From Raja brachyura (taxonomy: Eukaryota), in assembly GCA_963514005.1 (NCBI GenBank), contig OY740806.1, forward strand, positions 19,778,001 through 19,842,000: 64,000 bases of DNA, written 5' to 3'. The position numbers and the translations under genes were made by a program. Positions 1,499-54,800 of this stretch are shown here, one piece after another. The notes beneath the pieces were generated by a model. It was not told where the DNA came from and searched no databases. It saw only the letters and a program-made list of their open reading frames with translations. Each line of letters begins with the position of its first letter. Positions within the stretch are counted from its first letter, which is position 1.

Positions 1499-1825
1499 AA
1501 TTAACGTTGAGTGTTATGTGTTGCATTATCCACTCTTTGCTTGTTGCATGAAGGACCTGACAAGTAAAAACTGTCCTGTGGTCTTGCAAAGTGGGAGTAA
1601 AACTAATTTGACTTGTTGCGTCAAATGTGCCATCAGAGTTCCTGGTTGGGGAGAGTTTTGTGGTAATATTAACATCTGATTTTGTAGCTTGAGTGTCGTG
1701 AGGATGTTGCCATTGCATTGTGATGTTCTCAGGATAAAATCCCCATGCATGGCAGTCCAAAACAGATGCTTTCTCTGCTATTAAATCTCCCTGAGTCATT
1801 AGAATTTTTGGTGTAGATTCTGGGA
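1499..1825 (-). CDS. Ig C1-set domain exon of gene A (B7-H6/tapasin/SIRP-like C1)
   Basis: Open 327-nt phase 1-1 exon; acceptor tgttatttgttacag, donor gtaagt; LDCHAWGFYPENITMQW...NSDGTF...FTCQVLH has the C1-set C, GFYP, W, DGTF and CxVxH motifs. Confidence 0.88.
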
Positions 1826-2059
1826 CTGTAACAAATAACATGAAACAAAGTTATATGTTGCGCTACATACTTACATACTTATCCTTTCGTGCTAAATTAA
1901 AAACAAAAACAAAGCATGTTAATTAGCATTTATCCACTTAATGTATATAGGTCTGAAGAATGGTCTTGACCTGAAACATCACCCATTCCTTCTCTCCAGA
2001 GATGCTGCCTGTCCCTCTGTGTTACTTCAGCATTGTTTGTCTATCTTTAATGTTAAAAG

Positions 2060-2781
2060 CAATTCCACTTCAGTAAGTGTGAATCAGAAATATTATTTTT
2101 TCCTGGTGATAACCAATGTCTTGTAGACCCACATAAAGGCCTTCCCATGAGTGTTATAAATTGTATCGTTAATTGTTAACTTGGACACAGAGCATGACCT
2201 ATTCTGCATTGGCCCCCTTCGGTCATGGCTGACTATGGGTGTCTCCAGAATGTTATTCCCTATATGGAGGATGCCTGTGCATGGCTTTGTTTAACGTGGG
2301 GAGACTGGTGCACAGACAGCCACCCCACAGTCCTTGACAGATCTGCGTCAGAATCTAGTGGCATGGAGTCCAAGACGACCGGAGACCCTTTGCTACTGCA
2401 GCCTTCATCCGCCTTCTCAGCCGTTGTGACGCTCCACAAATGTCAGCCATCATCCTCCGCCTGTTCCACTGTTGAGGTCTTGGTTGGATTGCTCTTTGCC
2501 CGCTATTGTTTTTGATATTATCTATATTAAACCAAGGACCGCTCAGGGCATATGTAGGAAGGGACACAAAAAGCTGGAGTAACTCAGTGGGTCAGACACC
2601 ATCTCTGGAGAAGGTACAGGTGACATTTCGGGTCTTGACCTCTCAGGACCTTATTCACCATTCAGTTGTGAGTACTGAGGGGAGAAGTAAACAGCCAAGA
2701 TCTTTTACGTCATGGGTCGGTCAACTGTTCAGGAGAGGGGGAGTAGAGTTAGGGCCAAGGAAGGAATAATTGTCGGGATCT
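2060..2781 (-). pseudogene. Decayed C1-like exon split by two insertions (~2197-2506 and ~2545-2640)
   Basis: Acceptor ttctgcttcctacag; translated pieces IPTIIPFLGP...DLGCLLLPSVLTTEW, SGPWFNIDN and SVSKLTINDTIYNTHGKAFM resemble C1 strands; contains stops; 3' boundary approximate. Confidence 0.4.
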
Positions 2782-3919
2782 CTGTAGGAAGCAGAACAAA
2801 TTGACAGTGATCCATTTTTCCAGAACAAATAATACAAATTTTTCACGCAGGAATAGACAGAGTACAAGTTATACATTTAACCTGTTTAGTGCTGCCCCCG
2901 AGTATACTTGGGTCATTGGCCAAAAATGAAAAAAAACTTGGCCGTGAACAGGTTAAACAGAGATGCATTTAACATCAGAGATGGATTTAACAATTGTTGG
3001 TGACCTGAAACTGAACACCCAGGATTAGAATGTGACAAGGAAACCAGAGATATGTCCAAAAAGAAAATGTAACATTCTTGGATGAGGAAGGGGTGTGGCA
3101 GTTTTGAGGAAGGGGGTCAGTGCATTGCAGGAGAGAGAGAATAATCTGCCAAGGAGAAGAGAAAAATGTAAAGACCATGGTAAGAATCTTTCAAACTTTG
3201 TAGATTAAGCAGTGATGAATGAGAATTTTGGAAGCAGTTATAGAGTTATAGTGCTATACAGAATGGAAATAAGCCCTTTGGCCCACCATACCCATTCCCA
3301 ACAAAGTTAGTATTTCGATCTAGTCCCATTTGCTTGCAGCTTACAACCTAAGTGTATGTGCACATAGGTATCTAACCTACAAACGACTAAATTATTCAGT
3401 AGATTACTGAATATAAATAGTAAGATTAAACAAGACCTTACCAGTTTGAAGTTTGATCTTTATTTTATGAGGAGTTACGTTGGTGATTACGTGAAGAAGC
3501 CCCGCCAGTGCGCATGCGCGTCAATCTTCAAAGCAGCGATATGAAAACACAAATAACAGTTATCAAAGTAACATAGTAAGATGAGCAACTTGAGAACTAC
3601 CAGATGACCTTTGTGAGAGGGTTGGACGTGGAGGGCACGTAATCACCAACGTAACGCCTCATAAAATAAAGATCAAACTTCAAACTGGTAAGTTCTCGTT
3701 TAATCTTACTATTTTACTTCGGAGTCACGTGAGTGATTCCGTGAAGGGTTCAAAGCTTTGTGATTTCATGCCGCAGGTTCAAATCCTGGCTTCTCACTGC
3801 ATTGATTGACTCGGAATGAGAAATAATCAATAATGCATTAATGTTGACATTGCATTAAATGCAGTAACACATTTATTTGAATAACAAAAGAACAGTAACC
3901 CCTCTAACCCAGGGGGAAC

Positions 3920-4800
3920 TTAAACAGAACTTAATACGGTATTAGCAAAGAGCCCCGGATCGGCAATCGGCCGATGGTAGAAATGTTGAAAAGCCAACTC
4001 ATTTGACCACCCGGCGGCTGCGAGAATATGGTCGATGGGCAAGTCCATCGCCCTTGCCGCCGACGCTGCTGCTGCCCTAGTGGAATGAGATGTAAAAACA
4101 TCAGTGTTAATACCAGCATCAACCAATACTTGTTTCAACCACCTCGAGATAGTCTGTACTGACACTCTCTTGTGTGACTTCCTATAACTGATAAATAACC
4201 CTGTTTCCATATTTCATAAGGCCCTCGTAGCTTCAATGTATTGCAGCAAATGTGTTTTTACACATAGACATGGATCCGTGGGATATGCCGAAAAAACAAT
4301 CTTGAACTCTGTCACACCTGGCCTGCTCTGTTTGAGTAGGTCATAAATGTAGAACGTAACATTATCTGCAGCCAGTTATCTGTCTGCACTCGTTGTGCTG
4401 ATACCAGAGCCATGAGCATGACCACCTTCATGGTGACTTTGGCCAAAGTCGGAGATGTGACAGGGGTCCACTGACGAAGTAGCTTGAGGACTACGCTTAC
4501 ATCTCAGATTGCCATATATCTGGGTTTAGGAGGTCCGGAATTAAAAATACCTTTCATCAATAGAGAAACAAGAGGATGAGACCCAATAGGATGTTCTTCT
4601 GACCCCATCAATAAGTACGAAGACAATGCACTTCTAGTTGAATTGATTGCACTATAATTCAACCCCTCATCGTAATAGAGTGTTGACGGAAACTCTAGAA
4701 ATACCTGCCGTACAATATTCACTATTATTTTGTACACAGAAAACTTCCCATTTATTTACATAAGAAATATACTGCTTTTGAGTACCCGTCCTCCAGGCTG
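3920..4800 (-). pseudogene. DIRS tyrosine recombinase (frameshifted)
   Basis: SHSTRAAAASAA...ILAAAGWS...FQHFYHRP catalytic motifs; N-terminal part lies in another frame (4504-4737). Confidence 0.85.
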
Positions 4801-4864
4801 CAGTGAACATGTCCACAGTTCGCCCAGACAGTCCTCACCCCAGATATGGCCTTATTAAAACCTG

Positions 4865-6750
4865 CAAATTAACAAATCAATACGGTCATATAACGGATGC
4901 TGTTCGCCAGTTACCGGGTGCACCAGTAAATCCCTTTGTTTGGGAACAGCCATCAGGGGTTGTGTCACCAACTCCAATATCAAAAGGAACCATGGCTAAA
5001 TAGGCCAGTCGGGTATCACCAGCACCCCTGAAGCGGCATCCTGCTTAATTTTAAGCAGACACCGACTTATGAGACAGAATGGTGGAAATGCATATAAAAA
5101 CATACCACCTTAATGTAGCGAGAAAGTGTCAGTCGCTACTGCCCCAGGATCTGGTTCCCATGATACATATTTAGGTAGCTGGTGGTTGAGTCTGGATGCG
5201 AACAAGTCAATATCTGGCCTTCCATATTTGACAACTATATCATTGAATACGTCCTGATTCAACATCCATTCTGTGTTGTCATGGAATTTTCGTGACCTGG
5301 TGTCTGCTACTATATTGAATCTACCTGGTAGATAAATAGCTGAAAGCCAAATGTTATTGTTAATACACCAGGTCCAGATTTGATTAGCCAGTTTGTCACA
5401 AGAAACCGACTTGATTCCACCCATGTGATTAACACAGGCCACTGCCGTAGTGTTGTCAATTTGAAGCTGGTTAGTTGTGTTAGAACAATAAGCCTTGAGT
5501 CCATAAAAAAAACCTCCCAAAAGCTCTAAGTGATTAATTCCCCATGTCTGCAGAAGCAATGTCTCTTCCGCATTCCATCTGCCTTCACAGCTGGAGCTCG
5601 TATCAGTCGCACCCCACCCTAGTGCACTGACATCAGTCTGTCAGACCATGGAAGGCTGTTCAAGCACTACTTTGCTGGAACTACTAGAGACATGCTGAAT
5701 CCACCACTGAAGGTCAGTAACATCATCTGCTGATAACTGCACGGGCCTATTATAATGGCCCGAACATATCCTTAGTGCCTGTTCATTTGCCCTCTGTAAC
5801 TGCTGGTAGTGCAAAGGCACATACTGAACTGCCGGAAAAGCTGCCACTAATTTTCCGAGCAGGCTGACCACCTGTCTAATTGAAGGTTGTAGCTCATTCA
5901 AAAGCTTAATGCATCCATCAATTAGCTCCACTATTTTCGCATTGGGCAGAGTCACTGCCATGTGAATTGAATCAATTGTGAAACCCAAATAGTCAATTGT
6001 TGTAAGTGGTGTAAATTTGGATTTCGCTGGATGAATGATAAACCCCAAAAGTGATTGTAACAACTGCCACAGATGCTTCAGCTAATTCACTTTTGTGTCC
6101 TATAATTAATATATCATCCAAATAAGCCATAACCACATGACCCTGGGCTCTAAGTAGCCCCAGTACTGGCTTTAACAATTTAGTGAATATTCTAGGAGCT
6201 GAAGTTAACCCATTAGGCAGTGCCTTGAATTGCCATAATTGATTCATCCAGGTAAATTTCAAATACTTTCTATCTTCCAAATGAACAGACACTGAGTAAT
6301 ATGCATCTTTCAGATCTATAGTTGCCATATAACATCCTGTGGAAATCAGTTGCTTGGCAGTAAAGAATGCTTCCATTTTGAAGTGTCTATACTGTACAAA
6401 AGGGTTAAGACTTGTCAGATCCAAAATAATTCTACATCCTCCGTCCTATTTCGGTTGGGGAAAAATATTTGACTTAGTGAACCAACCTCTCAATTACTCC
6501 TTAATTACTCAAATTTTCATGTTCAGCCTGAACCTCCATTACTTCTGTTTGTGAAAAATGGAGTGTTCTGCTAGGAACATGCTGGAGGGGCAAATCACCA
6601 TTTGGATCTAACTTAATTCGAATCCCTTGAATAATACTCATGATAAATGGATCTGAGGTAATTTGCTTCGATTCCTCATAGAACAGATGTAATCTACCCC
6701 AAACCTTTGGCTGTGTTGTACTTAATATGTTCCCATGAGAACCTGGCCCA
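4865..6750 (-). pseudogene. DIRS RT-RNase H-methyltransferase-like ORF (fragmented)
   Basis: IDLKDAY, LPNGL, YLDD, INHLEL/IDNTTAV (RNase H), DIDLFAS and YAFPPF (MT-like) spread over several frames. Confidence 0.9.
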
Positions 6751-7949
6751 CCTACCTCCTTGGTAACTGGTGTGACCTGCTGTCCCCAGTTCCGGGTGGG
6801 AAGCCCCACGTTTGTCCGTGTTCCCGCTGCAGATTGCCAACTGCACATCTGCATCGATGGCCGACTTGTTCCTGGTGTAGACCCGGAATCTGCACCTCTT
6901 CTGTATGGATACCTTCTCCTCACAGATTTGCTGACCATCGGTGTCTTAATCAAACCCACCGTTTTTGCTTCGTAATCCAACTCCTTCACGCGTTTCGCGA
7001 GGTCCTCCCCAAAGAGTAAGTTGGGTAGTTGCACATTGGTGGGCTTGCAGAGCGCTGCAAACTTAGGGTTGATGGTGGGCCGAATGGCACTCTTCCTGAG
7101 ACAATTGATCTTAAAGTGGGCGCTGCACAGCAACCCTAGTGACTCTTGATGTGTCTCCGACAGATGCCCCCCATCCATTGTTCTAGTGAACGCCGTGATT
7201 CCTGAACCCAGCAGCTTCAGGATTCCCTGCAGCTTTATTTCCTGGGCACGCATGCCCACGCCCATCTGACCCCATATCACCTGGTTTACTGCCGGTACCT
7301 TTAGCAACACGCAGTTCCTCGGGGACTCGTGCATTTTGGCGGTGTCGTCCATCGTGAGCTCCTGGAGCTGATGGGATACCATATAATTTATCGTGGAGAC
7401 CAGTTCTTCTCCCAGTGGCTCTCCTGACTCTGACGGGACAGCGAATCGTGCTGCCAGAGATGGGACATCTGGCAGCTGCTGTTGTTCGCTTGGCTCCACC
7501 TCACCGTCAGAGTTGGGGTCAGAACTCAGCTGACCCATTGCACGCGCCTCATCAATGAGGGTGCTATCGAGCAGCCCTCTACTAGGTGCTGCTGGCGCGG
7601 CCTCTTCTCCAGCCTGGTGCCGACACCACTCCTCCTCCTGGAGTGTGCCCTGCTGGAGCAACCTGTGCAACAGGTGCTCCATTTGGGATAACTGTTCAAA
7701 AACGATGTCCAGCTCCGGAGGGGAATCTTCCTGGCCCGACTCCCCCGATTCCGTGGGCCTGACAGACTTGTGCATTGCATTACGCCCGACTAGCGCTGGC
7801 TCTGTGCTTTGCAGCAGCAAGTCTGCAGTCGCCCCGCTCCCAGCCGGCAACTGTGCAGGGGTATGAGGCAGCCGTTCACAGACCACACTCCCGCGGCTGT
7901 CTACGGTTTTTGCTCCGGCTCGCCTCTTCCCCTTGCCCGCCTTGTCCAT
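6501..7949 (-). CDS. DIRS ORF1 (gag-like), open and running into the start of the pol region
   Basis: Long ORF; INPKFAALC...LLFGEDLAKRVKEL block is shared with ORF1 of the DIRS at 21-22.7 kb. Confidence 0.8.
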   Translation of the reverse strand: MDKAGKGKRRAGAKTVDSRGSVVCERLPHTPAQLPAGSGATADLLLQSTEPALVGRNAMHKSVRPTESGESGQEDSPPELDIVFEQLSQMEHLLHRLLQQGTLQEEEWCRHQAGEEAAPAAPSRGLLDSTLIDEARAMGQLSSDPNSDGEVEPSEQQQLPDVPSLAARFAVPSESGEPLGEELVSTINYMVSHQLQELTMDDTAKMHESPRNCVLLKVPAVNQVIWGQMGVGMRAQEIKLQGILKLLGSGITAFTRTMDGGHLSETHQESLGLLCSAHFKINCLRKSAIRPTINPKFAALCKPTNVQLPNLLFGEDLAKRVKELDYEAKTVGLIKTPMVSKSVRRRYPYRRGADSGSTPGTSRPSMQMCSWQSAAGTRTNVGLPTRNWGQQVTPVTKEVGGPGSHGNILSTTQPKVWGRLHLFYEESKQITSDPFIMSIIQGIRIKLDPNGDLPLQHVPSRTLHFSQTEVMEVQAEHENLSN

Positions 7950-8913
7950 GGTGCTATCTAAAGAGATACAACACGGCACCACAGCAAAACGGACCCGAAC
8001 TCCAGCTAAGTTTTTCCCACTTACCTGGAGTCTAAATACTTACCACTCTAGGAGCTCTGTTCCTTCCAGCCTCCATGCACCAACGCGGCTGACGTAATGA
8101 CGCGCACGCGCACTGGCGGGACTTCTTCACGGAATCACTCACGTGACTCCGAAGTAAAATTTAACCTAAACGAGTATTGAAATATAGGCAATCCAAATAT
8201 TTGGAAGAATTGTATTTTAAGAATTGTAGAGCCAGCTAATAGAGTCATACAGCGTGCAAACAGGCCCTTCGGCCCAACTTGTCCACGCTGACCTATATGC
8301 CCTATCTACACTAGTACCACCTGCCCGCGCTTGGCCATTAACCCTCTAAACCCATCCTATCCATCCAGCCAATACCTGGAGCAGGTAATAACAATGAAAG
8401 AAGCACAAAATGAATTTCAGTGATAGTCTTCATACCTAACCTATGATTCTTTGCATTAAAACTGCAGGTGCTGGAGATCTGAGTTGAAAATAAAAATATT
8501 GCAAACTCTGAGCTGATCAGGCAGAATCTGTGGAAAAATAAACTTTAATTGTTTCCGTTAAGACAGTTGTAACCTATGCTGCTCAGTGTTGCTACCTTTC
8601 TCCAACTTTATTTGATGATCCCTTTGCCTTGGATACATAACTGCACAGACTACATTTGACAGAATATTCCACAATTAACACGGGTAAATTACTTATTATT
8701 CTTCTTCGTTGGAATGAATTACAATTAATTAGCCTGACTTCCCATAGTGCTTGTTATTAATCTATATCAGTGTATCTAAATGTGGTATGATATGTAACTA
8801 TAATCAATACATATTATAGGAACTGCATTTCTGCAGAATTATATAAATACTTTATCATAAACCTGCATAGAGTGCAGAGACTGGAGATCATCATAGTATT
8901 GCAAATACTTTAC

Positions 8914-9261
8914 CATAAACCTGTATTCGTGTTCCTTGGCCCTTTTCATGAATTGGAGGGAAGACATTTGGTACTTTCACCACACAAGTGTAGTTGTAAA
9001 CAGAGTGACCAAACGATACATTTTCAATCTTCAGTGATACCGTACAGTGCTTGAAACCATCCCAGAGAGGGTGAGGAATGCAGAGCGATTTGTTCGTGTT
9101 GTAAGTAGCATCAGGCCATCCAGGTGATGTCCGATACCATGAAACGCGGAGCCAGGCATTCGCACTTCCATCATAAGTAAATGTACAGTTTAACATGACG
9201 GACTCGCCCCTCCCCACACTGACCAGACGTGGCTGGGTCAACTCTGTGATCAACGGAACTC
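8914..9261 (-). CDS. VJ-type IgV exon (gene A, V1)
   Basis: Open 348-nt phase 1-1 exon; acceptor ttatgttccatcag, donor gtaaag; TQP, LNC, WYR, SLKI, YTC and J-like GQGTRIQV. Confidence 0.9.
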
Positions 9262-9761
9262 CTGATGGAACATAAATAAATTTGTTATTTTTACTTCCAT
9301 TTATAGTCACGCAGAAGCTCACTTTATACAACACCAGTGTGCGGGGATCATTGATCAACGCAAACTTGGTGGGCCAAAGGGCCTGTTTCAAAACTGTATC
9401 TCTAAATTAAACGAAACTATACTAAACGAACCTAAAAGCAATGCTGAACTGGAGACGAAAACAGAATGCTGGAAGAACTCAGTGGGTCAAGCAGCATCTC
9501 GGGGGATGAAGGGATAATATGTTTTGGGTGAGTCCCTGAAACAGGACGTAGGGGGGATTAGAAAATATGACCAGTATGTAGTAGGATGTGGGAGAATGGG
9601 ATGGGGATTAGTTAGCAAAAGGTAGAACCAGATGGGGAGCAGGGAATGTGCAAATGGATCAATGGGTGGGGTGGAAGAGGAGATCAAAGCAGATGGTGGA
9701 AGAGGACCTAAATTTAACATTGGCTTTCCATTGCATCAATTATTTTTAAAATATATAATTA

Positions 9762-11810
9762 TGCATTTAACAAAACAATACGGTCATATAACGGATGCCG
9801 TTCGCCAGTTACCGGGTGCACCAGTAAATCCCTTCGTTTGGGAACAGCCATCAGGGGTTGTGTCATCAACTCCAATATCAAAGGGAACCATGGCTGAGTA
9901 GGCCAGTCGGGTATCACCAGCACCCCTGAAGTGGCATCCTGCTTAATTTTAAGGAGACACCTACTTATGAGACAGAATGGTGGAAATGCATATAAAAACA
10001 TACCACCTTAATGTAGCGAGAAAGCGTCATTCGCTACTGCCCCAGGATCTGGATCCCATGATACATATTTAGGTATTTGGTGGTTGAGTCTGGATGTGAA
10101 CAAGTCGATATCTGGCCGTCCATATTTGACAACTGTATCATTGAATACGTCCTGATTCAACATCCATTCTGTGTTGTCATGGAATTTTCGTGACCTGGTG
10201 TCTGCTACTATATTGAATCTACCTGGTAGATAAATAGCTGAAAGCCAAATGTTATTGTCAATACACCAGGTCCAGATTTGATTAGCCAGTTTGTCACAAG
10301 ATACCGACCTGATTCCACCCATGTGATTAACATAGGCCACTGCCGTAGTGTTGTCAATTTGATGCTGAACATGCAGGTTAGTTGTGTTAGAACAATAAGC
10401 CTTGAGTCCATAAAAAAAAACTCCCAAAAGATCTAAGTAGTTAATTCCCCATGTCTGCAGAAGCAATGTCTCTTCCGCATTCCATCTGCCTTCACAGCTG
10501 GAGCTCGTATCAGTGGCACCCCACCCTAGTGCACTGACATCAGTCTGTCAGACCATGGACGGCTGTTCAAGCACTACTTTGCTGGAACTACTGGAGACAT
10601 GCTGAATCCACCACTGCAGGTCAGTAACAGCATCTGCTGATAACTGCACGGGCGGATTATAATGGCCCAAATGTATCCTGAGTGCCTGTTCATTTGCCCT
10701 CTGTAACTGCTGGTAGTGCAAAGGGACATACTGAACTGCCCACCGTTTTTGCTTCGTCATCCAGCTCCTTCATGCGTTTCGCGAGGTCCTCCCCAAAGAG
10801 TAAGTTGGGTGGTTGCACGTTGGTGGGCTTGCAGAGCGCTGCAAACTTAGGGTTGATGGTGGGCCGAATCGCACTCTTCCTGAGACAATTGATCTCAAAG
10901 TGGGCGCTGCACAGCAACCCTAGTGCCTCTTGATGTGTCTCCGACAGATGCCCCCCATCCATTGTTCTAGCGAACGCCGTGATTCCTGAACCCAGCAGCT
11001 TCAGGATTCTCTACAGCTTTGTTTCCTGGGCACGCATGCCCACGCCCATCTGACCCCATATCACCTGGTTTACTGCCGGCACGTTTAGCAACACGCAGTT
11101 CCTCGGGGACTCGTGCTTTTTGGCGATGTCGTCCATCATAAGTTCTTGGAGGTGATGGGATACCATATCATTTATCGTGGAGGCCAGTTCTTCTCCCAGT
11201 GGCTCTCCTGACTCTGACGGGACAGCGAATCGTGCTGCCAGAGATGGGACATCTGGCAGCTGCCGTTCTTCGCTTGGCTCAACCTCACCTTCAGAGTCGG
11301 GGTCAGAACTCAGCTGACCCATTGCACGCGCCTCATCAATGAGGGTGCTATCGAGCAGCCCTCTACTAGGTGCTGCTGGTGCGGCCTCTTCTCCAGCCTG
11401 GTGCCGACACCACTCCTCCTCCTGGAGTGTGCCCTGCTGGAGCAACCTGTGCAACAGGTGCTCCATTTGGGATAACTGTTCAAAAACGATGTCCAGCTCC
11501 GGAGGGGAATCTTCCTGGCCCGACTCCCCCGATTCCGTGGGCCTGACAGACTTGTGCATTGCATTACGCCCGACTAGCGCTGGCTCTGTGCTTTGCAGCA
11601 GCAAGTCTGCAGTCGCCCCGCTCGCAGCCGGCAACTGTGCAGGGGTATGAGGCAGCCGTTCACAGACCGCACTCCCGCGGCTGCCTACGGTTTTTACTCC
11701 GGCTCGCCTCTTCCCCTTGCCCGCCTTGTCCATGGTGCTACCTAAAGAGATACAACACGGCACTGGCGGGACTTCTTCACGGAATCACTCACGTGACTCC
11801 GAAGTAAAAT
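9762..11810 (-). mobile_element. Partial duplicate of the 3415-8160 DIRS with two internal deletions
   Basis: Near-identical to 4865-8160; deletion junctions at ~10740 and ~11760; same 5' junction and flank as 8160. Confidence 0.92.
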
Positions 11811-12562
11811 TAAACCTAAACAAGTATTGAAATATAGGCAATCCAAATATTTGGAAGAATTGTATTTTAAGAATTGTAAAGCCAGCTAATAGAGTCATAC
11901 AGCGTGCAAACAGGCCCTTCGGCCCAACTTGCCCACGCTGACCTATATGCCCTATCTACACTAGTACCACCTGCCCGCGCTTGGCCATTAACCCTCTAAA
12001 CCCATGCTATCCATCCTGCCAATACCTGGAGCAGATAATAACAATGAAAGAAGCACAAAATGAATTTCAGTGATGTCTTCATACCTAACCTATGATTCTT
12101 TGCATTAAAACTGCAGGTGCTGGAGATCTGAGTTGAAAATAAAAATATTGCAAACTCTGAGCTGATCAGGCAGAATCTGTGGAAAAATAAACTTTAATTG
12201 TTTCCCTTAAGACAGTTGTAACCTATGCTGCTCAGTGTTGCTACCGTTCTCCAACTTTATTTGATGATCCCTTTGCCTTGGATACATAACTGCACAGACT
12301 ACATTTGACAGAATATTCCACAATTAACACGGGTAAATTACTTATTATTCTTCTTCGTTGGAATGAATTACAATTAATTAGCCTGATTTCCCATAGTGCC
12401 TGTTATTAATCTATATCAGTGTATCTAAATGTGGTATGATATGTAACTATAATCAATACATATTATAGGAACTGCATTTCTGCAGAATTATATAAATACT
12501 TTATCATAAACCTGCATAGAGTGCAGAGACTGGAGATCATCATCGTATTGCAAATACTTTAC

Positions 12563-12910
12563 CATAAACCTGTATTCGTGTTCCTTGGCCCTTTTTATGA
12601 ATTGGAGGGAAGACATTTGGTACTTTCACCACACAAGTGTAGTTGTAAACAGAGACACCAAATGATACATTTTCAATCTTCAGTGATACCGTACAGTGTT
12701 TGAAACCATCCCAGAGAGGGTGAGGAATGCAGAGCGATTTGTTCATGTTGTAAGTAACATCAGGCTGTCCAGGTGATGTCCGATACCATGTAACGCTGAG
12801 CCAGGCATTCGCACTTCCATTATAAGTAAATGTACAGTTTAACGTGACGGACTCGCCCCTCCCCACACTGACCAGACGTGGCTGGGTCAACTCTGTGATC
12901 AACGGAACTC
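12563..12910 (-). CDS. VJ-type IgV exon (gene A, V2)
   Basis: Open 348-nt phase 1-1 exon with canonical AG/GT; 9 aa differences from V1. Confidence 0.9.
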
Positions 12911-15737: not shown

Positions 15738-16000
15738 CATAAATCTGTATTTGTGTTGCATCACCCTTTTTATATGATGGAGTGAACACACCTGGTATCT
15801 TCACCTCGAGTGTAGTTATAAACAGAGTGACAAACAGAACATTTTCTTCAGTGATACTACAGGATTTGAGGGGGTGAGGAATGCAGAGTGATTTGTTAAT
15901 TTGGTAAGTAGCATCAGGACACTCCCTGTGATGTCCGATATCAGGAAACACTGAGCCAGGCATCCACACTTCCATTATAATAAATGCACAACTTATCACA
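15738..16000 (-). pseudogene. Decayed VJ exon (gene A)
   Basis: PDATYQINKSLCIPHPL...VKIPGVFTPSYKKGDATQIQIY is homologous to the V exons; indels, donor GT changed to CT, 5' part missing. Confidence 0.85.
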
Positions 16001-18524: not shown

Positions 18525-18588
18525 CTGTTGAGTATCTCTGCTCCAGTAGGAACACCATCAGTTGCAATAAAATGTTTCCTGCCAACAT
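18525..18588 (-). CDS. Signal-peptide (leader) exon of gene A
   Basis: 64-nt exon from ATG to ACAG|gtcagt encoding MLAGNILLQLMVFLLEQRYST(G); phase 1 joins the V exons in frame; identical coding copy at 59173-59236. Confidence 0.8.
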
Positions 18589-18903: not shown

Positions 18904-21063
18904 GAAATGCTGGTATTTAAGCATGTTCCTTGGTGTGCTGGCAATGCTTAAAAGAGATTTAAGACAGAAAAGATGTGAAAAATGGCAATTGTTTTGTTAA
19001 TTAAATTAGTGAGTTTTTATCATGTATTACTATTATATGAATTTTTAAACAAAATAAACATATTTTCAACATTTTCCGTTAACAAAAACGTACATGTAAT
19101 GTCTAGCAAGAATAGCCCAAGGTCCATTTAAGTTTACCTTCCCCCCCCAATACAATGGCTACATGTTGATTTCTGAATTCTTCAGTTCTCCATGGAGCTT
19201 TGCACTGCCTTCCACAACGTCAGAACCAAGATAATTATGACTGCATGCGAGATGGAGGAATGTATTCCTTCAATAGCTTAATAATGCTAAATAATTGCAA
19301 CAGACTGAAAAGGAAAGACATTACGTTACACCAGCATTGTCTCAACCGGCAATGTCAACCATTCTTTTGCTTCCACAGATGCTGCCTGGCCAATTAAATT
19401 CCTCCAGCAGTTTGTTTATTGGTCCAGATGCCAGCATCCGCAGTCTCTCGTGTCTCCATTTGACATCACATGAGGATGGATGTGAGCATCAGTGGTGGGT
19501 GGGCAAATGGCTGCACAAAAATCTGAGGCCAATTATTTTTTATTGTGTGTAATGTGCCTGTAATGCAGACGCAAGTGAGATTTTCATTGGTCCAGTCCAT
19601 AAGTGGTTGAGATGATAAATAAACGCTCTTGACTTTAACTGTGGATCAGTTTCCATCACCCATTATGAGATATTGTCCCTTACGAATACGGTGTGGTGAT
19701 GGAATCGGCTTTAGAAGGTCCAGTGAGGCTGTAAGGATTCTTTAACTCATTGAATCCGTTCTTGGTCTAGATCAGTTGTGATTATGCCAATGATATATAA
19801 AGTTATGGGATTATCACAACATGGTGGGCAGGTAACACACCCAGCATCTGATTTATTTTCCAGACTGCCACAGAGCGAGTTTGTGATTTATTCTGCTCAT
19901 TGTCATATCAGGAACCTGAGATTAATTTTATTTACCATTTACATTGCAGCAATGTCTTTGGACAGAGTGTGCTTTCATTAATAAAGATGGTCAACTGTAA
20001 AATAAATTGACCAAAACAGCATTTTTGACTATATCTTATACAGATGGCAATAGTAATTTAACTAAATTCTAAAAAGCTTTTAGAAATATGAACTTGAAGC
20101 AGTATTTTGTTGATACTCGGTATGTCGTTAACTTTGTTTGATAACAGAGAGCACACACTAAGTTATTGACGTTTATAGTTCTACTAACATTATAGATGCA
20201 TAATTCCCCTGAACTTACTTCAAAATGAAGACCCTCTGAATTAAAATCTACATACACTGCGGCATTAACATCGTGGTTATATGTATCTTGTTGCTTTTTT
20301 TGTGTGACTGTTGGCAAATCAAATTCCTTGTATGCTTACTTACTTGGCTAATAAATTAATAACAATTGCAATTATTTATTTACAGAAAGAGTGCTTAACC
20401 ACCAGGAAAGTAGGTCAACATTATGCCATCGAGCGTCTAAAACTTGTATCATGCAAGTGACCAGGATACAGACAGGAAATAAGAAGAGTTGAAGTGCCAT
20501 TTGCTAAAGGTCAATGAGTAAGAGCTACTTTCCGATATAAGTGCAAACAGCACCTTCTATTGTATATTTAATCTGCTACTTGCTTGTCCAAGTCCTGTGT
20601 TTATATATCCTCCATAGTAAGACTGTAAAAAGTATAATGTTATTTCAGGACTCTCCGATGTGCTGCACACCTTTGAAGTGGAGTCGTATTGTGATGCTGA
20701 AATTGTGGAAATCCAATTTGCATGGAGTGAGTAACAGGAAACATGTTGTTAAATGGTGAGTGCGCGGCAGGACTATGGAGTGACTTCTACTGCTCCCTTT
20801 CGAAACATTGTTCTGATGTAATTTACCTGAGAGGGCAGATTCCACAGAGTTGTGAATCTGGGGAATTTCATTTCGGAGTCACGTGAGTGACTTCGTGAAG
20901 AGCCCGCCGGCGCGCATGCTCGACATATCGTCGCATCGCGTTGCTGCGACGGCTGGCGGTGGAGCGCGCTCCTCGCCAGCCCTCCCTAAGGGAACCACTG
21001 AGGTAAGTATCCTACCTTAAGTTGGTGGTCCTTGTTGTGTTGCTTTGTTTTCGCAGCAAGGAC

Positions 21064-27193: not shown

Positions 27194-28581
27194 TCTCCTT
27201 CGCTCCTGAGATGCTGCTGCACCCGCTGAGTTTCTCCAGCTTTTTGTGTAACCCCTAGGCTTAAGAATAGCTTCACCCTACAAACATCAGGCTGTTAAAT
27301 ATGGCACAACACTAACTAAACTATAAACATAGAAACATAGAAACATAGAAAATAGGTGCAGGAGTAGGCCATTCGGCCCTTCGAGCCTGCACCGCCATTC
27401 AATGTGATCATGGCTGATCATCCAACTCAGTAAATAGTCAATAAACTATTCATTGTCTTTGGTTGCACTAAGAACTTTGGTCTCTTTTGCACTAGTACTG
27501 TGGTTAATTTTCTTTATTTGATTTTGTTTATTATATGTTATGAGTATTGGGTTTATAGCCCTGTAATGCTGTTGCAAATGAGAATAGTACATATGACAAT
27601 TTTAAAACTCTTGACTCTCGACTACTGAAACTACTGGATTTTTGCAAAGATCATCTGATGCTAATGTCCTTCAGAGAAGGAACATTCCTCTCCGTGCCTG
27701 ATCTGGCCTTAATGTGACCGCAGACCCACGAATATGGGTGATGCTTACCTGCTTTCTCACCTCGGCTCAGGGCAATTAGGAATGGGTAATATATATGGGC
27801 ATTGCCGATGATATCCAGATCCTACAAGTGAAATAAGACTGAACCTCTTTCTATCAATTGGAGGGAATGGATGGCAAAAGGTTTCTGTTCAACGTGATAT
27901 TAGAGCTCTATGGACAGCAAAGTTGTTTTGAGCATTATCACTGTTGGCAAAACACAATTGCCAATTTGTGTTCACCAAGGTCCCAATAGGGCAGAAAGTT
28001 TGATTCTCTATTTTAGTATTTTTCTAGCTTATTCCAATGAAATAAATATTGGCTATTAGTATAGTCCTAATAAAAACAAGCTGGACTAAAGTAAGATCAA
28101 CAATGAATATATTATTCATTTTAATTTGTCAATGCACTTGGAGGGTGTTCTCAGTTGACAGCTGTTCAGTCACTTAGCCGTCCTATCATTCTGTAACAAT
28201 ACGGTTACTGGTTTATACCAATGTTTAACCGTATTATTTTCATGCTTACATGCTATTAACACATTTGTAATATTCTAGGAACATACTTTCAGTTTAATCT
28301 ATTGTGGGAGAGGCTTGTACTGGAGAGATGTCTGTGGCTGCTGAAGGGTGTGAATGGAAGTAATGAGAAAGCTTTTTCCAAGCCGGCACCTATAAAGTAA
28401 ACACCGCTGTGTAGCATGATTTTGTATAAACATTAACAGAAATGCAGGAAGCACACGGCTCCATGGACAACGTCTGTGGAAAAAGCAACCAGTTAAAGTA
28501 AAACATCAGAAAAAAAAGCACAAAGTGCTTGAGTAACTCAGCAGGTCAGACTGCATCTCTGGAGAACATGGATAGGTGTTG

Positions 28582-32125: not shown

Positions 32126-33768
32126 CATACAGGATGTCATCAGTGAAGAAGCTACCACTGCTGATTATCATTGAAGACTCCACAAAAGCAATTTCTGTCT
32201 GACTTGTGAAGTGCTTTCAAATGGCGTTCTCAGAATGCAATTGGAGCGTAAGTTGCTTTGTTCCTACGAATGTTAACAAAAGTATGAACTATTTTAATTA
32301 ACATTCGTTCTTTTGTTTAATGAGGTAGAACAACTGGAGGAAGCCCTTGAAGCGCTGGATTGCAGTGTGGTCAAAAATAATATGACGTGAAACAAATTCA
32401 ACTTGAGATGTTTAGATATCAGCTCAAACCAGTGGCTTCCTGTCCACGCCAACAACAACCATGCCAGCAGAACAGTAAGTCATGAGTAGTATTTCTCAAA
32501 ATTGGCAGGAAATTACTGATATCAGATTCTATTTGTTTTGTGGGTCCATTACAAAACAGGGATGGTAAAACAAAGATTGCTCTGAGATTAATTGCGCTGG
32601 TTCGTTCAAAGCGCAATGTTTGCCCACTTCCTCGTGGCAAGTTTCTGCATCGCATCCTTTGATGAGTACTGCCGAACTTAATATGTTTTGCCTTTGATTT
32701 CGTTGTTGTGCTTACAAAAAGATTCTGATATCCATCTGCCAATACAAAAGAAATGATGTTGGAAGGAACTGCAGATGCTGGTTTAAACCGAAGATGGACA
32801 CAAAATGCCGGAGAAACGTCACCCTTTCAAATGCTAGAGAAAGAAAGGGTGACATTTCTTCCATTCCTTCTTTCCAGAGATGCTGCCTGTCCCGCTGAGT
32901 TTCTCTAGCATTTTGTGCGTATCTTCACAAAATAAATGATGTCAGTAGAGAACACAGTTTTCATAGTATTGTTATTTTGGGACTTCTTGGTGTCATTCCT
33001 ATTGCTTTTGAAAGTCTTTAATTGTTCTTAATTTAAGAAGGAGATTTGAAGAATCTCCTTAAGAAGGAGAATACGTGGAGACTCACCAGTCCAACAACAT
33101 TACCCTGGAATCAACATACATTAAAAATTGACCATACACATTGCTGTATTGGACGTTGAGGAACTATATATGACTGAAAAAAAGTTTTCTTTTAGCTTAT
33201 CTCACTGGTTATGAAAACAATTGGGAAGTGGGGAATTACTTGAAAAGACCTCTGAGGAAATGTCCTGCTAATATCAGCAACACTGTACAGTAGTGTCTCT
33301 CCTTCAACCACAATACACAGTACACTTGAAACAAACCTTTGTGTCAGAGTTGGAATCTGCAATGATGAGGAAAATTATTGGATTTCAGGGACTCCAACAA
33401 TCCTTATTCCAGGAGTTATCTTGAACCCATGCATGTTTGCGTGAAATTGAGACCACTGCAGGTTACAAGCTTGAACTGCAATGATGATGAACCCCATGCT
33501 ATATCGGTTATGCCCCCCTTTACAAATTGCATCATGTGACTAATGGCTGTCTTCACAAATGTTTCATTGCTGGACGTAGAATGCACAAGAAGATTCCTGT
33601 CCCAACGTAAACTTTTATTTTCTCTAATAAAGTAGCCATGTTTACTTGAATCACTAGCCATTTTACAGTGTTTCAGAGCGGGAATCTGAGCTGCCAAGGC
33701 GCTTCTGTTGTGGGTTTTAGAAGTGATATATGAAGTCAGTAACCTGATAGCCTCCCAGTTTAGCGAGT

Positions 33769-36059: not shown

Positions 36060-39000
36060 CATAGTAATTGTATTTCTATGTATTTTTTCCAGTTTTTATA
36101 AAGATAGAAATTAATAGAGAAAGAGTAAACAAAAAAGAGGAGGAAAAGTTGGGAAAGAATGGAGTGTTCTATAGATTATGCATCGTTGGAGATATATCCG
36201 CGTATTATGAAATGTAATTCTTCATCTATTCTTTGATTCCAGTTTCAGTCGGGTTCTCGTGCCGAACCAGTTTGCTCCTTCAAATATTCAATAAATGGGG
36301 ACCATATTATTTTAAATAGTTTTTGTTTGTCCATTAAGACGAATCTTAATCTTTCCAAATATAGGGTCTCCGACATTTCTGTAGTCCACATTTTTAATTG
36401 TGGGGGTTATAGGACCTTTCCAAAATTTTAATATTAATTTTTTCCCAATTATTAAACTATAATCAATAAAGGTTCTTTAATTTGAAGTAATGAATTGATT
36501 TTGTTCTATTATTCCTAATATTATTAATTTTGAATCGCGGACCAGTTTGGTATTGATGACTTCCGAGATTATCTTAAACATTTCCATCCAAAAATTATTA
36601 ATTTTTATACAGCTTACGAATGTGTGCGTTAGGTTAGCCTCTAAGTGTTAACATTTATCACAAATAGGGGAAACACTTGGAAAAATTCTATTCAATTTGG
36701 TTTTTGAATAATGCAATCTATGTAATACTTTAAATTGTATTAAAGAATGTCTAGCATTTAACAAACAGTGATGTATATGTTGTAAACTTTCATCCCAAAT
36801 TTCTGGGCTTATTGTTTGTCCTAATTCATTTTCCCATGATTGCCTATATGAATCCGTCTTGGGTGCATCGTTATCTAATAGAATATTATAAATATAAGAT
36901 ATCAATTTTTCTGTGTTCGGATGTTTATTCAAACATTCATCAAAATGTTCTATCTTTCTAATTCTATAGTCATGTGCATTTGACTTAGCATAGTCTCTGA
37001 TTTGTAGATATCTAAAGTAATCCTTTGATTGAAGCCCATAGATTTGTTGTAATCCCTGAAATGAGAAAAATGAATTTTTCCTATAGAGATCACCCATCTT
37101 TGTAATTCCATGATTTTTCCATTGTAAAAAACCCTTATCCATCAATGAGGGTTTAAATGCAGCATTGTTTACAATAGGAAGAGATAGTGTTAAATAATCC
37201 AATTTTAATGTTTTCTTTATTTGTTTCCAAATGCGTATTCCATTGTCTATTATAGGGTTTTCTTTATAAGTTTTTTTGCTTAATTTAGTAATAGCAAATA
37301 GAATTGACCCAATTTCAAAAGGTAAACAATCTTCCTTTTCCATTTTTAACCAATCTGGTTGTTTGTCCAATTCTTCCAACCAAAAATTCATATTTTTAAT
37401 ATTGACTGCCCAGAAATAAAACATAAAATTCGGTAATGCTAAGCCTCCATTTATTTTTGATTTACATAAGTGTTTCTTTTTTATTCTGTGGTTCTTATAA
37501 TCCCAGATAAAATTGGTGACTGTAGAGTCAACCATTTTTTTAAATGTTTTGGGGAGATATATCGGGATTAATCGAAAGAGGTACAATAATTGCGGGAGAA
37601 AAATCATTTTTATCGCATTAATTCTACCCAACGTTGAAATAGGTAATGTTTTCCGATACAAAATATTCTTATATAATTTGTTCAGTAAAGGCGGAAAATT
37701 AGATTTAAATAAAGAAGTGTATCTGTTTGTTACATAAATTCCAAGATATTTAAGTTTTTCTTTTACTATTTTAAAAGGGAATTGTAAAATATGTGGGTTA
37801 TTTTCCATTATTGGCATGATTTTGCTTTTATTCCAATAATTCTGTATCCTGAAAACGAACCATATTGAGTTATTAAATTTAGTAAATTTGGGATACTAAC
37901 TTCAGGTTTAGTAATGTAAACTAATACATCATCTGCGTATAATGAGATTTTATTTTCAATATCTTTGGTTTTATACCCGTATATTTCAGGATTGTACCTC
38001 ACGCTTTCTGCTAATGGTTCTATTACAAGTGCAAATAATAATGGGGATAATGGACATTCTTGTCTACAACCTCTGGATAAATTAAATTTAGTTGATAATA
38101 TTTGATTTGTTGATATTCTAGCTGTTGGATTTGTATATAGAAGTTTTATCCATGTACTAAACTTCTCGCCCAGTTGAAAAATGTTCATAACCGAAAATAA
38201 ATAGGGCCATTCCACCTGGTCAAAAGCTTTCTCAGCATCTAACGAAATAATTGCTAGGTCTTTGATAATATTTCTTTTTGAGTATATAATATTGAATAAT
38301 CGTCTCGGGCTATATGAAGAATACCTTTTTGAATCCGGGTGTATTAATTTATTAATCACTATGCTTAATCTTTGTGCTAGGATTTTAGTTAATATTTTCT
38401 CATCAGCATTTAGAAGAGCTATAGCTCTATATGATCCTGGATCATCCAGATCCTTATCTATTTTTGGTATAATAGATTAATTTAGGTTCATAGATTCATT
38501 ACCAGTTTCTGGTAATTTCTGTTGGATATAGATATGTTTGTACAGTGTCTTTAAATGTGGAACAATCAGATCATAGAATGTTTTATAAAATTCCGAGCCA
38601 ATGCCATCTGGTCCCGGGATTTACCTTTTTTTAGTGATCTGATAGACTCTTCAATTTCTTTTACTGTTATTTCAGCATCTAATAATTCTCTCTTTCAAAT
38701 CTAACCCTTTAAGATTGCATTTTTGTAAAAATGCTTCTATTCCTGTCTGGTGATCTATAGTTTTAGCAGAATAAAGATTTTGATAGTATTGTAAAAATTT
38801 CTCGTTAATGTCCTTAGATTGTACTAATGGTTCTCCTTTGTCTGATTTAATCCTATGAATTGTTTTTTCCCCGTCCAGTTTCCGTAATTGACGAGAAAAT
38901 AATTTTTTAGGTTTATCTCTGAATTCAAATTGTAATTGTTTAGTATATTGATAAAATTTAACAACTTGGTCTGAATATATTTTATTTAATTTATATTTCA

Positions 39001-40828
39001 ATACTTCAATTTTATTATGTTTTATCATAGTTGGTGGAGCCGCGTTCTCTATGTCTAATTGTTTAATTTCCCTTTCCAGTGCCTGTTGTATCACCCGATT
39101 CTTTTTATTATAAAATGCTTGGGAAGAAATCACGACTCCCCGAGTAAATGCTTTAAATGTTTCCCATAGTAAGGAGGCAGATGTTTCAGGATTATCGTTT
39201 ATTTCAAAGAACATATTAATCTGTTTGGTAAGATATTTCTGAGATGCTTTCTCCGTTAACATTTGTGGGTTAAGACTCCATTGTACCTGTTTCTCCGTCC
39301 TTCCATTTATTTTAATCATAAATGTTAAAGGGGCATGATCCAAAATTATAATATTATGGTATTTTGAATTATATGTAAATGGAATTAGCTTAGAGTCCAC
39401 TAAAAAATAATAAATTCTTGAATAGGTTTTATGTACCGGTGAATAAAATGAATATTCTCGTCCAGTTGGATTTTCTATTCTCCAAACATCTTTGATATTA
39501 CTAGCATCTATATATGCGTTTAATAAATCACTGGAGTGGGATATTGTTTTCCGTTGTCTTGATGACCTATCTAAATAGAGATCTAATGTACAATTTAAGT
39601 TTCCTCCGATTATTAAATTGTGTTGGGATAATTCCGGAATTGTATTAAATATTTTCTTAAAAAACAAAGGGCTATCAAAATTTGGTCCATAAACATTAAT
39701 AAGTCAATTTTTGTGCATATAGTTCACCTCGTAGTATAATATATCTACCATCACTGTCCGTTATAGTTGACATATGTTTAAAAGGTATCCCTTCACGGAT
39801 TAGTATTGCAACACCTCTGGATTTATGTTTAAATGAAGAATGATACGCTTTATCAATCCATTTAGCTTTCAATCTATGTTCTGCATCCTTTTTTAGGTGG
39901 GTTTCTTGGAGGAAAATTACATCTGTTTTAAGTGCTTTTAAATGTGCTAATACTTTACCTCTCTTAATTGGTTCGTTAATACCCTTAACATTCCAGCTAC
40001 AAAATGTTATTCCTTCACCCTCGGTCTTCATATTTAAGTCTTGCATCTTTTGTTTAGGGAGGTCTATAAGAGAGCAGATGGTTCAGCTCGACAAGCCCCA
40101 CATTACACCCGAACCTCGAATAGATGAATTTTAAATCCCATTGATCTTTCTTACGTACATATCTCCTTTGATAAAGCTCATAACTCCATTCTAACTTAAA
40201 ATTATAATAAAGTATTATATTAAAAAAAGAATAGATTAAGAGGTTAGTAATGTGCAAAAAGAAAGAAAAAACTACATCTATAAATAGTGTAGTTAGTGAT
40301 AGCCATACTAGCATGGCTAACCATCTACCGACTTCCATAGTCGATGTAAAAAAACACATGACTAGCTCCATACTCTCTTTAAAATGACATTTTCATAGCG
40401 ATATTTTACCGGGGGGGGGGGGTGGTAAACATTATAGGTTCCAAAATATTCAAATTCCATTAGTCAAATATATATTTTAAAAAATTCTTTTTTTAAAATT
40501 CCCCCAAAAAAAGGAATGAAAGAGAAGAAAAGTGAAATCAAACTTTAAATCCAACCGTTTAGCTAATTCTAAATAATTCAATTGTAAGTAATTAGTGACC
40601 ATTAGTAATAATTATTAATAGTACCGCGCAGTAATGTTAATATTTATTAATTATTATGTTAATAATATAATAATAGCCATAGATGTAACACGTCCGTGGA
40701 AAAGGCCTTATTCAGCATCCATCTCCAGTTTCAATTGTCCTTAGGTATAACCGGGCCTTAGAACCATCCGACCTTACACAGTTACATTGTTCGTTGACAT
40801 CATTTATTTTGAAGATAATGTTCAGTCA

Positions 40829-51816: not shown

Positions 51817-54800
51817 TGTGACGCCACCCGGTGGTCAGGCCACTTACTATGTGAACCCTCGGCAGTCGAGGGTACGGTCACGTGACAGGGTAATGGGGGA
51901 AGGAGTTGTCACGACGTTTAGGGGTGTGCCCTAGTATAAGTATTCAGCCACGGGTCAACCTTCCCCCATTCATGTGTGTGTTGTTCTCTTTACTTCAGCA
52001 ATAATGATCTCTTTTTTTTTAAATATTTTTTTATTTGAAGTAACCAGTTTACAATGTATAACACACATTTAAAACTATCATCTTAATTCAATATTTCTAC
52101 AAATAGCACATCGATAATTAATATCGTCTGTTTTTTTGGAAATAAAGATAGAAAAAGATATATAATAAAGAGGAAAAGAAAAAAAAAGATAGAAATAGAA
52201 AACAATCTACAAATACAAATTAAAAAAATATATATATATTATATATATATATAAATCAAAAACAACTAAGTACATTATACATGAAATTATTTCAAACAAT
52301 AATATCAATGGGACATGCGCATTAATCCCATATGTAAATAAGTTATTCTCATCGGATTCCGTAGGGTGCCCGTCGAGCCGTGATGCCAAGAACAGCTACT
52401 TCTCTAGATACTGTATATATGGAGACCATATCAGTTCAAAAGAATTATACCTGTCCAATAGGACAAATCTAATTCTTTCCAAATATAACGTCTCCAGCAT
52501 CTCTGCTGTCCACATTTTAATTGTTGGGGATAATGTTCCCTTCCAAAATTTCAATATGATTTTTTTCCCTATTATCAAACAGTAATCAAAGAAATTTCTT
52601 TGATTTACTGTCAAAACCAAACTTGATTCCAGAATTCCAAATATTATTAATTTTGGGTCAGGGTCCAGTTTAACTTTAAGAACTTCAGAAATTACTTTAA
52701 AAATTTCTGTCCAGTAATAATTCAACTTAGGGCATGTTACAAAACTATGTGTTAAGTTTGCTTCTAGATTCTTACATTTATCACAAATAGAGGAGAGATT
52801 GGGAAAAATACTATTTAATTTGGTTTTCGAATAATGTAATCTATATAGTACTTTAAATTGTATCAATATATGTCTAGCATTTAAAGAACACCGATTTATT
52901 CTCTGTAAGCTTTCTTCCCAAATTTCTTTTGTTATAGGTAATCCAATTTCATTTTCCCATGCTTGGCGATATGTTTCAGTTATTGGGGTCTCTTTATCTA
53001 GAATAATATTATATATATGAGCTATTAACTTTTCCGTATTTGGATGTAAATTAAACAAACCATCTAATAAGCCTGGTTCTTTATTTTTATAATCTTGTGT
53101 ATTACATTTAATGTAATCTCTAATTTGTAAATATCGAAACAAATGTTGTGAAGGCAATCCAAAAATATCTTGCAACTCTTCAAATAATAAAAATTTTCCA
53201 TTTCTATAAAGGTGTCCTATCCTTTTAATTCCTAAATCCTCCCAGAGTCTAAACCCCGCATCTAATATTGAGGGTTTAAACAATGGGTTATTCCTAATTG
53301 GTAACCTGAAGGATAGATTATCCAGATGTAAAGCCTTAACTATCTGTTTCCATATACGCCTATTATTATAAATTATAGGGTTATCCCTATAAATCTTTTT
53401 TTGTACTTCCTTTGGGGCAAAAAGAATCGAGCCTATATTAAAAGGTAAACAGTCTTCCTTTTCCATCTTTAACCACATTGGTTCATTATCCAGATTTATC
53501 CACCAAAAATTCATATTCTTAATCTGGACTGCCCGGAAGTAATATAAAAAACTTGGAAGTGCTAACCCTCCATTTATCTTAGACTTACATAAGTGTTTTT
53601 TACTTATTCTATGACTTTTATAGTCCCAAATAAAACTATTAACAATATTATCAATTTTCTTAAAAAAAAATTTTGGGAGAAAAAAAGGAATAGCCTGAAA
53701 CAGATATAACAATTGTGGTTAAAAAAATCATTTTTATAGCATTAATTCTACCAACCATAGATATAGGAAGTGTTTTCCAATATGAAATATTTTTTATAAG
53801 TTTATCTAATAATTGAGGATAATTAGATTTAATTAATAATTTATAGGATTTAGGTACATTGATTCCTAAATATTTAAATTTATCTGTGACTATTTTTAAT
53901 GGATATTGTTGCAATATATTTACATTTATGCCAGTTATAGGCATAATTTCACTTTTATTCCAGTTAATCCTATATCCTGAAAATATGCTAAATTCATTTA
54001 TAACATTAAATAACTTGGGAATACTGCATTCCGGTCTTGTAATATAAATCAAAACATCATCTGCATATAAAGATATTTTATTAATTGTTGTATCAGTATT
54101 ATAACCATATATTTCAGGTTCAGATCTAATTCTTTCAGCCAAAGGCTCTATGACCAAGGCAAATAATAAAGGGGATAACGGACATCCCTGTCTGCATCCC
54201 CTAAATAGTTTAAATTTAGGTGATAGTATTTGATTAGTTAAAATTCTTGCAATAGGATTAGAGTATAATATTCTTACCCATTTACAGAATCCATCCCCCA
54301 ATTGAAACTTTTCCATTATATTAAATAAATATGACCATTCCACCTGATCGAATGCTTTTTCTGCATCCAACGATATAACTGCTAATTCTGTGTCTCTTTT
54401 TCTTTTCGAATATATGATATTAAACAGGCGCCTAAGATTGTGTGATGAATAACGTTTTGGAATAAAACCTGTTTGATCGTGATGTATTATTTTAGAAATC
54501 ACTAAACTTAGCCTCCGAGATAGTACTTTAGTTAATATTTTTTGGTCAGTATTTAAAAGAGCAATCGCTCTATATGATCCAGGATCTTCCAGATCCTTGT
54601 CTAACTTAGGGATGAGTGTAATTGTAGATTGATTTAAGGATTCTGGTAATTTTCCTAGTTCATATGCATATCTATACACTATCTGTAATCTTGGTGAGAT
54701 TAGATCATTAAATTTTTTATAAAATTCTGCACTCAGGCCATCAGGGCCCGCGGTTTTTCCATTTTTTAACGAACCAATTGATTCTTCAATATCTCTTACT

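Follow-up and report, generated by a model that had tools for sequence, protein, structure and literature searches.

A decayed DIRS1-like retrotransposon with a probable splice acceptor of its own in an immunoglobulin-type receptor gene of Raja brachyura

Introduction

Two mammalian proteins, LAP2alpha (TMPO) and ZNF451-L2a, contain exons derived from DIRS1 gag, which are used as alternative terminal exons and evolve under purifying selection, with ratios of replacement to silent substitution rates (dN/dS, omega) of 0.38 and 0.16 (PMC4495291). The DIRS elements that twice colonised mammalian genes were inferred by Abascal et al. to have brought their own splice acceptor and poly(A) signal (PMC4495291). 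Here a comparable arrangement is described from Raja brachyura, in a stretch of 64,000 nt (contig OY740806.1, positions 19,778,001 to 19,842,000; the whole stretch is called the window and its first letter is position 1). A full-length, decayed DIRS1-like retrotransposon lies on the minus strand in the intron between exons V1 and C1 of an immunoglobulin (Ig)-type receptor gene, termed gene A, and in sense to it. It is probably a neutral insertion that decays without selection on its protein, the acceptor ahead of gag likely belongs to the element, and the host V exons would be spliced to gag only through leakage, if at all.

As in LAP2alpha and ZNF451-L2a, a DIRS gag of about 490-500 codons lies in sense in a host intron behind an acceptor, and would replace a C-terminus that bears the transmembrane (TM) segment. 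Unlike those exons, which are expressed and conserved across mammals, the gag described here shows an omega as in dead copies and its splicing is predicted only; moreover, the remaining element is still present and the product would be secreted, not nuclear. The locus thus appears to resemble the starting point of the LAP2alpha path but to fail its selection test.

A preliminary description of the window had offered human B7-H6 as an analogy. Ig domains and a Gag-homologous region do occur in one protein there, but according to the accessible part of the B7-H6 paper the Gag-like portion belongs to a membrane protein and forms its cytoplasmic domain, whereas here gag would follow a V domain in the secretory lumen (PMC2715080). 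DIRS ORF1 (open reading frame 1) is not clearly homologous to retroviral Gag (PMC4495291). Exonised DIRS gag is much the closer precedent (PMC4495291; PMC2715080). A further parallel is provided by decoys derived from transposable elements (TEs), namely IFNAR2-S, IL18R1-Short and soluble PD-L1: an intronic element could likewise truncate an immune receptor before its TM segment. In the available portion of the source these decoys come with transcript and functional evidence and have short TE ends, whereas the present case is known from splice signals (PMC13709765). Both the decoys and LAP2alpha are treated in the accessible parts of PMC13709765 and PMC7786948.

The acceptor ahead of gag

The acceptor that precedes gag is likely the end of an intron in the 5' untranslated region (UTR) of the element itself. 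A pyrimidine tract stands before its AG, and two GTAAGT donors lie a short way upstream (Table 1). The AG is retained in 27 of 28 other loci of the family and lost in one, and the spacer between AG and ATG measures 8 nt in 21 of them, 7 nt in 4, 12 nt in 1 and 4 nt in 1 (both counts made by eye). A GTAAG donor at 67-86 nt from the acceptor, on its upstream side, is present once or more in all 28. The spacer sequence of the predicted intron differs among subfamilies while the donors persist, and an exact gapped pattern applied to the genome retrieved 63 copies in which the spacer has the length of an intron, and no intronless copy.

A second, younger DIRS family follows the same design. Its representative in the window begins at about 20870 on the plus strand, and 11 of 12 loci have a spacer of 7 nt behind the predicted intron. 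Copies of this family are 96-99% identical, and the one in the window lies antisense to gene A, just upstream of its leader exon. Two DIRS families would hence carry a native acceptor ahead of gag, at a distance of 7 or 8 nt from the ATG, where the LAP2alpha paper only inferred one. The spacer length sets the phase: 8 nt suits Ig exons, which are of phase 1, and 7 nt does not. A native acceptor of this kind would predict which host intron phase each DIRS family can trap. The value of the locus lies in exposing this mechanism; in other respects the element is unremarkable for an intronic retrotransposon. A weak literature search, outside which lay most subscription papers (e.g. Goodwin and Poulter), brought up nothing on an intron in a DIRS 5'UTR or on a V-gag chimera in fish.

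In its anatomy the element agrees with what the accessible parts of two structural papers describe for DIRS1-like elements, with inverted terminal repeats (ITRs), an internal complementary region, gag, reverse transcriptase, tyrosine recombinase and high copy number (PMC3266345, PMC9210276). It departs from them in that gag and pol share one frame and in the two predicted introns, one in the 5'UTR and one that would remove pol; the strings 'intron' and 'splic' are absent from the main text of both papers. The left ITR (8161-8120) is the reverse complement of 3745-3712, and the inverted arms of the internal complementary region at the 3' end (3415-3493 and 3636-3714) are 96% complementary. Reverse transcriptase (Pfam RVT_1, E 1.2e-14) and tyrosine recombinase (Pfam Phage_integrase, E 1.7e-6, above cut-off), which takes the place of a DDE integrase, are recognisable. 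For the RNase H and methyltransferase regions of pol, Pfam gave no RNase H match and only a weak PCIF1_WW match (E 0.03); we presume the positions of both from motifs and their order. The family is dispersed and multicopy, with at least 40 relatives at 84-93% identity (40 scored of 4069 candidates) and at least 63 copies by the exact gapped pattern. Candidate poly(A) signals common in the family are AATAAA at 3877 (11/16 copies) and ATTAAA at 3704 (15/15). Another AATAAA, at 7239 within gag, is found in 17 of 20 copies, is lost in the duplicate beside V2 and could give early polyadenylation.

Junctions between the V exons and gag

The preliminary description had proposed that each intact V exon of gene A is followed, less than 1 kb downstream, by a DIRS acceptor in sense and in frame with gag. 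Its coordinates, phases and open frames were all reproduced, and the sequence bears out both the orientation and an in-frame fusion. The acceptor reads ...tgtatctctttag/AT AGC ACC ATG (the slash marks the exon border); its exon starts at 7957 and runs 1457 nt to the TAA at 6503-6501, so that a phase-1 junction with V1 (donor 8913) is followed by 485 sense codons. Beside V2 (donor 12562) the acceptor ...ttag/GT AGC ACC ATG at 11741 opens a frame in phase with V2 that extends to a TAG at 11013-11011. Both exons begin 8 nt ahead of the ATG, and the would-be introns measure 956 nt for V1 and 821 nt for V2. Another AG follows the V1-side acceptor after 4 nt; its use would not preserve the frame. 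A search of sequencing runs with the V1 exon returned 6 runs, none listed as RNA, which has no bearing on expression; among the contig rows listed for these apparently genomic runs, neither the joint 8914-7957 nor 12563-11741 occurred. The leader exon of gene A (18588-18525) is intact and its hydrophobic core suggests a signal-peptide role, so a chimera would, as proposed, enter the secretory route.

V2 does not add a further case. The block 9713-4869 was copied in tandem to 13371-9767, and the copy then lost 8104-7980 and 6954-5834; the first of these deletions (125 nt) takes out both element donors, the second amounts to 1.1 kb, and the duplicated gag is stopped at codon 241. Because the V2 unit is a tandem copy, the V1 and V2 cases are one insertion event, for which sense orientation and matching phase would coincide by chance with a probability of about 1/2 x 1/3 (~1 in 6). 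Duplicate and original differ at 33 of 995 positions in gag, 40 of 974 in the dead pol piece, and 11 of 751 and 18 of 462 in flanking intron.

The frame shared by gag and pol

The long frame had been described as in frame with gag and open for about 485 codons. It is indeed open, but its final 84 codons are pol and not gag (40% identity over 55 amino acids with the beginning of another DIRS pol, E 9e-9). The other copies have no indel or stop in common within the first 482 codons, which places gag and pol in a single frame in the family. Origin of the long frame by a private frameshift, with fusion of gag and pol, was considered and rejected, as the other copies share no indel there. The stop at 6503 is private to this copy, being found in none of 15 covered copies.

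The end of gag is set at 398 codons by a predicted intron, 6755-4862, that would remove pol. The donor GAG/GTAGGT at 6755 is exact in 14 of 20 copies and the acceptor at 4862 reads CAG in 14 of 17; both are of phase 0, and joining them puts gag in frame with the recombinase. The prediction leans on this frame fit, the donor GT being present in 18 of 19 copies, a conservation no higher than that of other GT sites. No pol-less genomic copy was retrieved with exact patterns. That gag might be an internal exon of symmetric phase, flanked by V and C1, was rejected, since 7957-6756 measures 1202 nt and ends in phase 0.

Gag has a folded helical core at residues about 184-350, and an exhaustive protein search returned 854 relatives, where a word-index search with the 482-aa frame, weak as evidence, had given no match. 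None of 91 gag homologues scanned contains a V-set domain or matches Pfam LAP2alpha. PDB searches by sequence, profile and fold with gag did not return LAP2alpha; the best hits (Foldseek E 1.8, VIA Z 6.5) were generic helical hairpins. In one predicted protein of the little skate, methyltransferase and cytokine-receptor domains are linked with a DIRS gag core; it is probably a gene-model fusion, though of the kind that the gag-end donor would create.

Substitution pattern and age of the insertion

The preliminary description had suggested a comparison of gag dN/dS with other genomic copies. Twenty of the 28 other loci served as controls, as 6-kb stretches picked for long gag coverage. The branch leading to this gag has an omega of 0.67 (bootstrap 0.45-0.96), against 0.63 in the pooled controls, 15 of 20 of which are lower; the folded core gives 0.48 against 0.52, and the copy's own dead pol and recombinase give 0.59 and 0.42. 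After the duplication, gag beside V1 acquired 12 replacement and 2 silent changes, and gag beside V2 12 replacement changes (one a stop) and 7 silent ones. The omega of LAP2alpha (0.38) is rejected at P 0.017 and that of ZNF451 (0.16) at P 0.0001, while neutrality is not rejected. There is no amino-acid constraint on gag, and the comparison turned out neutral. That the arrangement is special or selected is thus not supported: the acceptor appears to be the element's own, dN/dS is neutral and V2 is not independent.

At silent sites the branch of this copy amounts to about 5.5%. No other locus has the stretch 7083-7200 in this form (97% identity with the duplicate, no more than 92% with 38 others), and a contig from a second organism, B, is identical to it over 118 nt; in intron sequence, B and the window differ at 7 of 523 positions. 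Because the contig of B matches this locus-unique stretch, the insertion and the duplication are placed before the split from organism B.

Weighing the explanations

In the neutral explanation the element would normally splice the short 5'UTR intron from its gag mRNA, while unspliced RNA would be packaged. By coincidence the 8-nt spacer to the ATG gives phase 1, as in every Ig exon. In the main host mRNA, V would likely be spliced to C1 across the element, and some leakage from V to gag is plausible, since the gag acceptor is nearer than that of C1 and has a pyrimidine count like the host's. Leaked RNA would end at the stop at 6501 or, after the gag-recombinase splice, at a stop 8 codons on; spliced on to C1 its frame would shift. 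Any V-gag fusion would likely arise by accident, as a by-product, and would not be a new protein under selection. The normal V-C1-I-TM product of gene A still seems to be made or used, because about 418 host codons are free of lesions where 3.7-5.5 would be expected (P 0.004-0.024), a rough sign in that the rate was taken from the element.

Several observations weigh against the neutral explanation, beginning with the lesions. This copy carries 8 stops and 4-5 frameshifts in pol and recombinase (12-13 lesions) and none in its first 482 codons. Over the 398 codons of gag the controls average 3.35 lesions (Poisson P 0.035; 1 of 20 controls clean), over the 482 codons 4.2 (P 0.015; 0 of 20 clean). 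Within the copy, with gag fixed beforehand, the fact that all 12-13 lesions lie beyond gag has P 0.037-0.047. The insertion has also persisted, being common to a second organism. As to splicing, the V1 donor is 956 nt from the gag acceptor and 7088 nt from that of C1, the pyrimidine count of the gag acceptor equals that of host acceptors (12/17), and beside V2 the element's competing donors are deleted; the roughness of the host-exon test has to be added. The clean gag is the one result that favours the preliminary description, which had named neutral decay of gag like that of pol and recombinase as evidence against its proposal: the substitution ratio is indeed neutral, but gag lacks the stops and frameshifts that the others have. 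The result is mildly unusual, and it is weakened because the finding was chosen for its open frame.

An effect of splicing on the host is unlikely, though of the alternatives it survives best. The acceptors would divert a real share of transcripts and yield a soluble V decoy or less membrane receptor, the truncation and not gag being what matters. Such a trap is compatible with the absence of protein constraint, and the acceptors are close and apparently strong while the V donors, GTAAAG, depart from consensus; TE-derived terminal exons yield decoy receptors in other immune genes, as the available part of one source reports (PMC13709765). This reading is drawn from sequence, however, and the C1, I and TM exons of the host are intact. 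Truncation alone needs no open gag, and the exon would span 1.2-4 kb; vertebrate exon definition disfavours exons of that length.

Early co-option of the LAP2alpha type is distinctly improbable. It would produce a leader-V1-gag isoform with gag as alternative terminal exon, in which a secreted V domain is attached to an oligomerising gag tail and selection maintains the open frame. The lesion-free gag beside dead pol and recombinase (P about 0.04), the intact leader, the hexamers at 3877 and 3704 that could end the transcript, the presence of the insertion in organism B and the precedent exons of 497 and 506 residues (PMC4495291) would all agree with it. It is opposed by the lack of constraint, folded core included, and by the 12 replacement changes that stand against 2 silent ones after the duplication. 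Moreover, the locus was chosen for its open frame, and a family of at least 63 copies should by chance hold a few; a V-set domain is absent from all 91 gag homologues, and the gag of the duplicate is already broken. The wider proposal that domestication is at its start here, with a secreted V-gag decoy made through the element's 5'UTR acceptor, and that fish DIRS elements are generally ready-made exon traps is improbable as well. A V-gag isoform that was real and selected would be the third capture of a DIRS gag and, among the papers searched, the first in the ectodomain of an immune receptor.

That gene A is no longer expressed and neither splice matters is very improbable. In its favour, the cluster is in flux, with broken V exons, two DIRS insertions and a neighbouring gene B without C1 and I exons, V1 and V2 differ by 9 replacement and 2 silent codons, and a single word-index protein search, a weak one, gave no match between the C1 exon and an annotated protein. 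Against it, the frame is open and the phase correct in every exon, from the leader through both V, C1, I and TM to the tail.

Host gene and features of the window

Gene A (18588-1499, continuing to the left of the window) has a leader-V-V-C1-I-TM-tail layout on the minus strand with all these exons open and their phases matching. The Pfam V-set E-values of its two V exons are 5e-9 and 7e-9. V1 is 81-83% identical to two skate proteins that NCBI labels as of the 'sialic acid-binding Ig-like lectin 12/13/14' type. The Siglec name is an automatic NCBI label, and we take the canonical Y-x-C F strand of V1 to differ from that of true Siglecs. Batoid V-C1-I-TM receptors under this label have the exon order of gene A, but the C1 and I domains of gene A are only ~30% identical to theirs, its TM segment begins with Arg and its tail is without tyrosine; gene C, to the right of the window, is a close match. 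The coordinates of all features are collected in Table 1.

Table 1. Features of gene A and of the DIRS elements, in window coordinates (a slash marks an exon border)
Feature	Position	Strand	Remarks
Leader exon	18525..18588	-	21 codons + 1 nt; phase-1 donor GTCAGT; homologue at 59236
Broken V exon, stop and frameshift	15739..15979	-	tblastn
V2 exon, Ig V-set	12563..12910	-	phase 1-1; donor GTAAAG at 12562; Pfam V-set
Duplicated truncated DIRS	9767..11811	-	left ITR kept; no recombinase, no right end
Duplicate acceptor and open frame	11011..11741	-	in phase with V2
V1 exon, Ig V-set	8914..9261	-	phase 1-1; ends TAT G/gtaaag, donor GT at 8913; Pfam V-set
Full-length decayed DIRS1-like retrotransposon, V1-C1 intron, sense to gene A	3412..8161	-	
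Predicted 5'UTR intron of the element	7958..8043	-	GTAAGT donors 8043, 8024; AG 7959-7958; 86 or 67 nt
Gag (ORF1), 398 codons, ATG to predicted phase-0 donor at 6755	6756..7949	-	no stop or frameshift
Pol start, same frame as gag, to copy-private stop	6501..6755	-	
Remaining pol (reverse transcriptase, RNase H, methyltransferase regions)	4857..6500	-	4 further stops, 2 frameshifts
Tyrosine recombinase ORF	3920..4861	-	predicted phase-0 acceptor at 4862; 3 stops, 2-3 frameshifts
Right ITR and internal complementary region	3412..3745	-	
C1 exon of gene A	1499..1825	-	intact, phase 1-1
I-set, TM and two tail exons of gene A	0.8-8.5 kb left of window	-	open, matching phase
5'UTR intron of the second, younger DIRS family	21003..21056	+	predicted; 54 nt; 7-nt spacer to ATG

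Neighbouring genes and repeats

Gene C lies on the plus strand at 76066-101098 in the numbering of the window. Its V exons are 92-94% identical in nucleotides to those of gene A, whereas C1 and I are only ~30% identical as protein. The homology reaches only about 40 nt beyond the V exon, which suggests gene conversion. The Arg at the start of the TM segment and the tyrosine-free tail of gene A, together with what we take to be motifs in gene C resembling immunoreceptor tyrosine-based inhibitory motifs, make it possible that the two are paired receptors.

Gene B (59236-42296, minus strand) consists of a leader, an intact V exon (50861-50514), a broken V exon and a TM-like exon whose donor reads 'gacaaa', with AC in place of GT; a C1 or I exon was not found, and the gene is probably a pseudogene. 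The segments 28004-28581 and 32382-33761 are ~90% identical to positions 479-1063 and 1939-3350 of the stretch L035, so that the segmental duplication of genes A and B extends upstream. Two decayed L1-like elements, at 36291-40062 and 52415-56194, are 71% identical to each other and carry what we take to be remnants of ORF1, endonuclease and reverse transcriptase.

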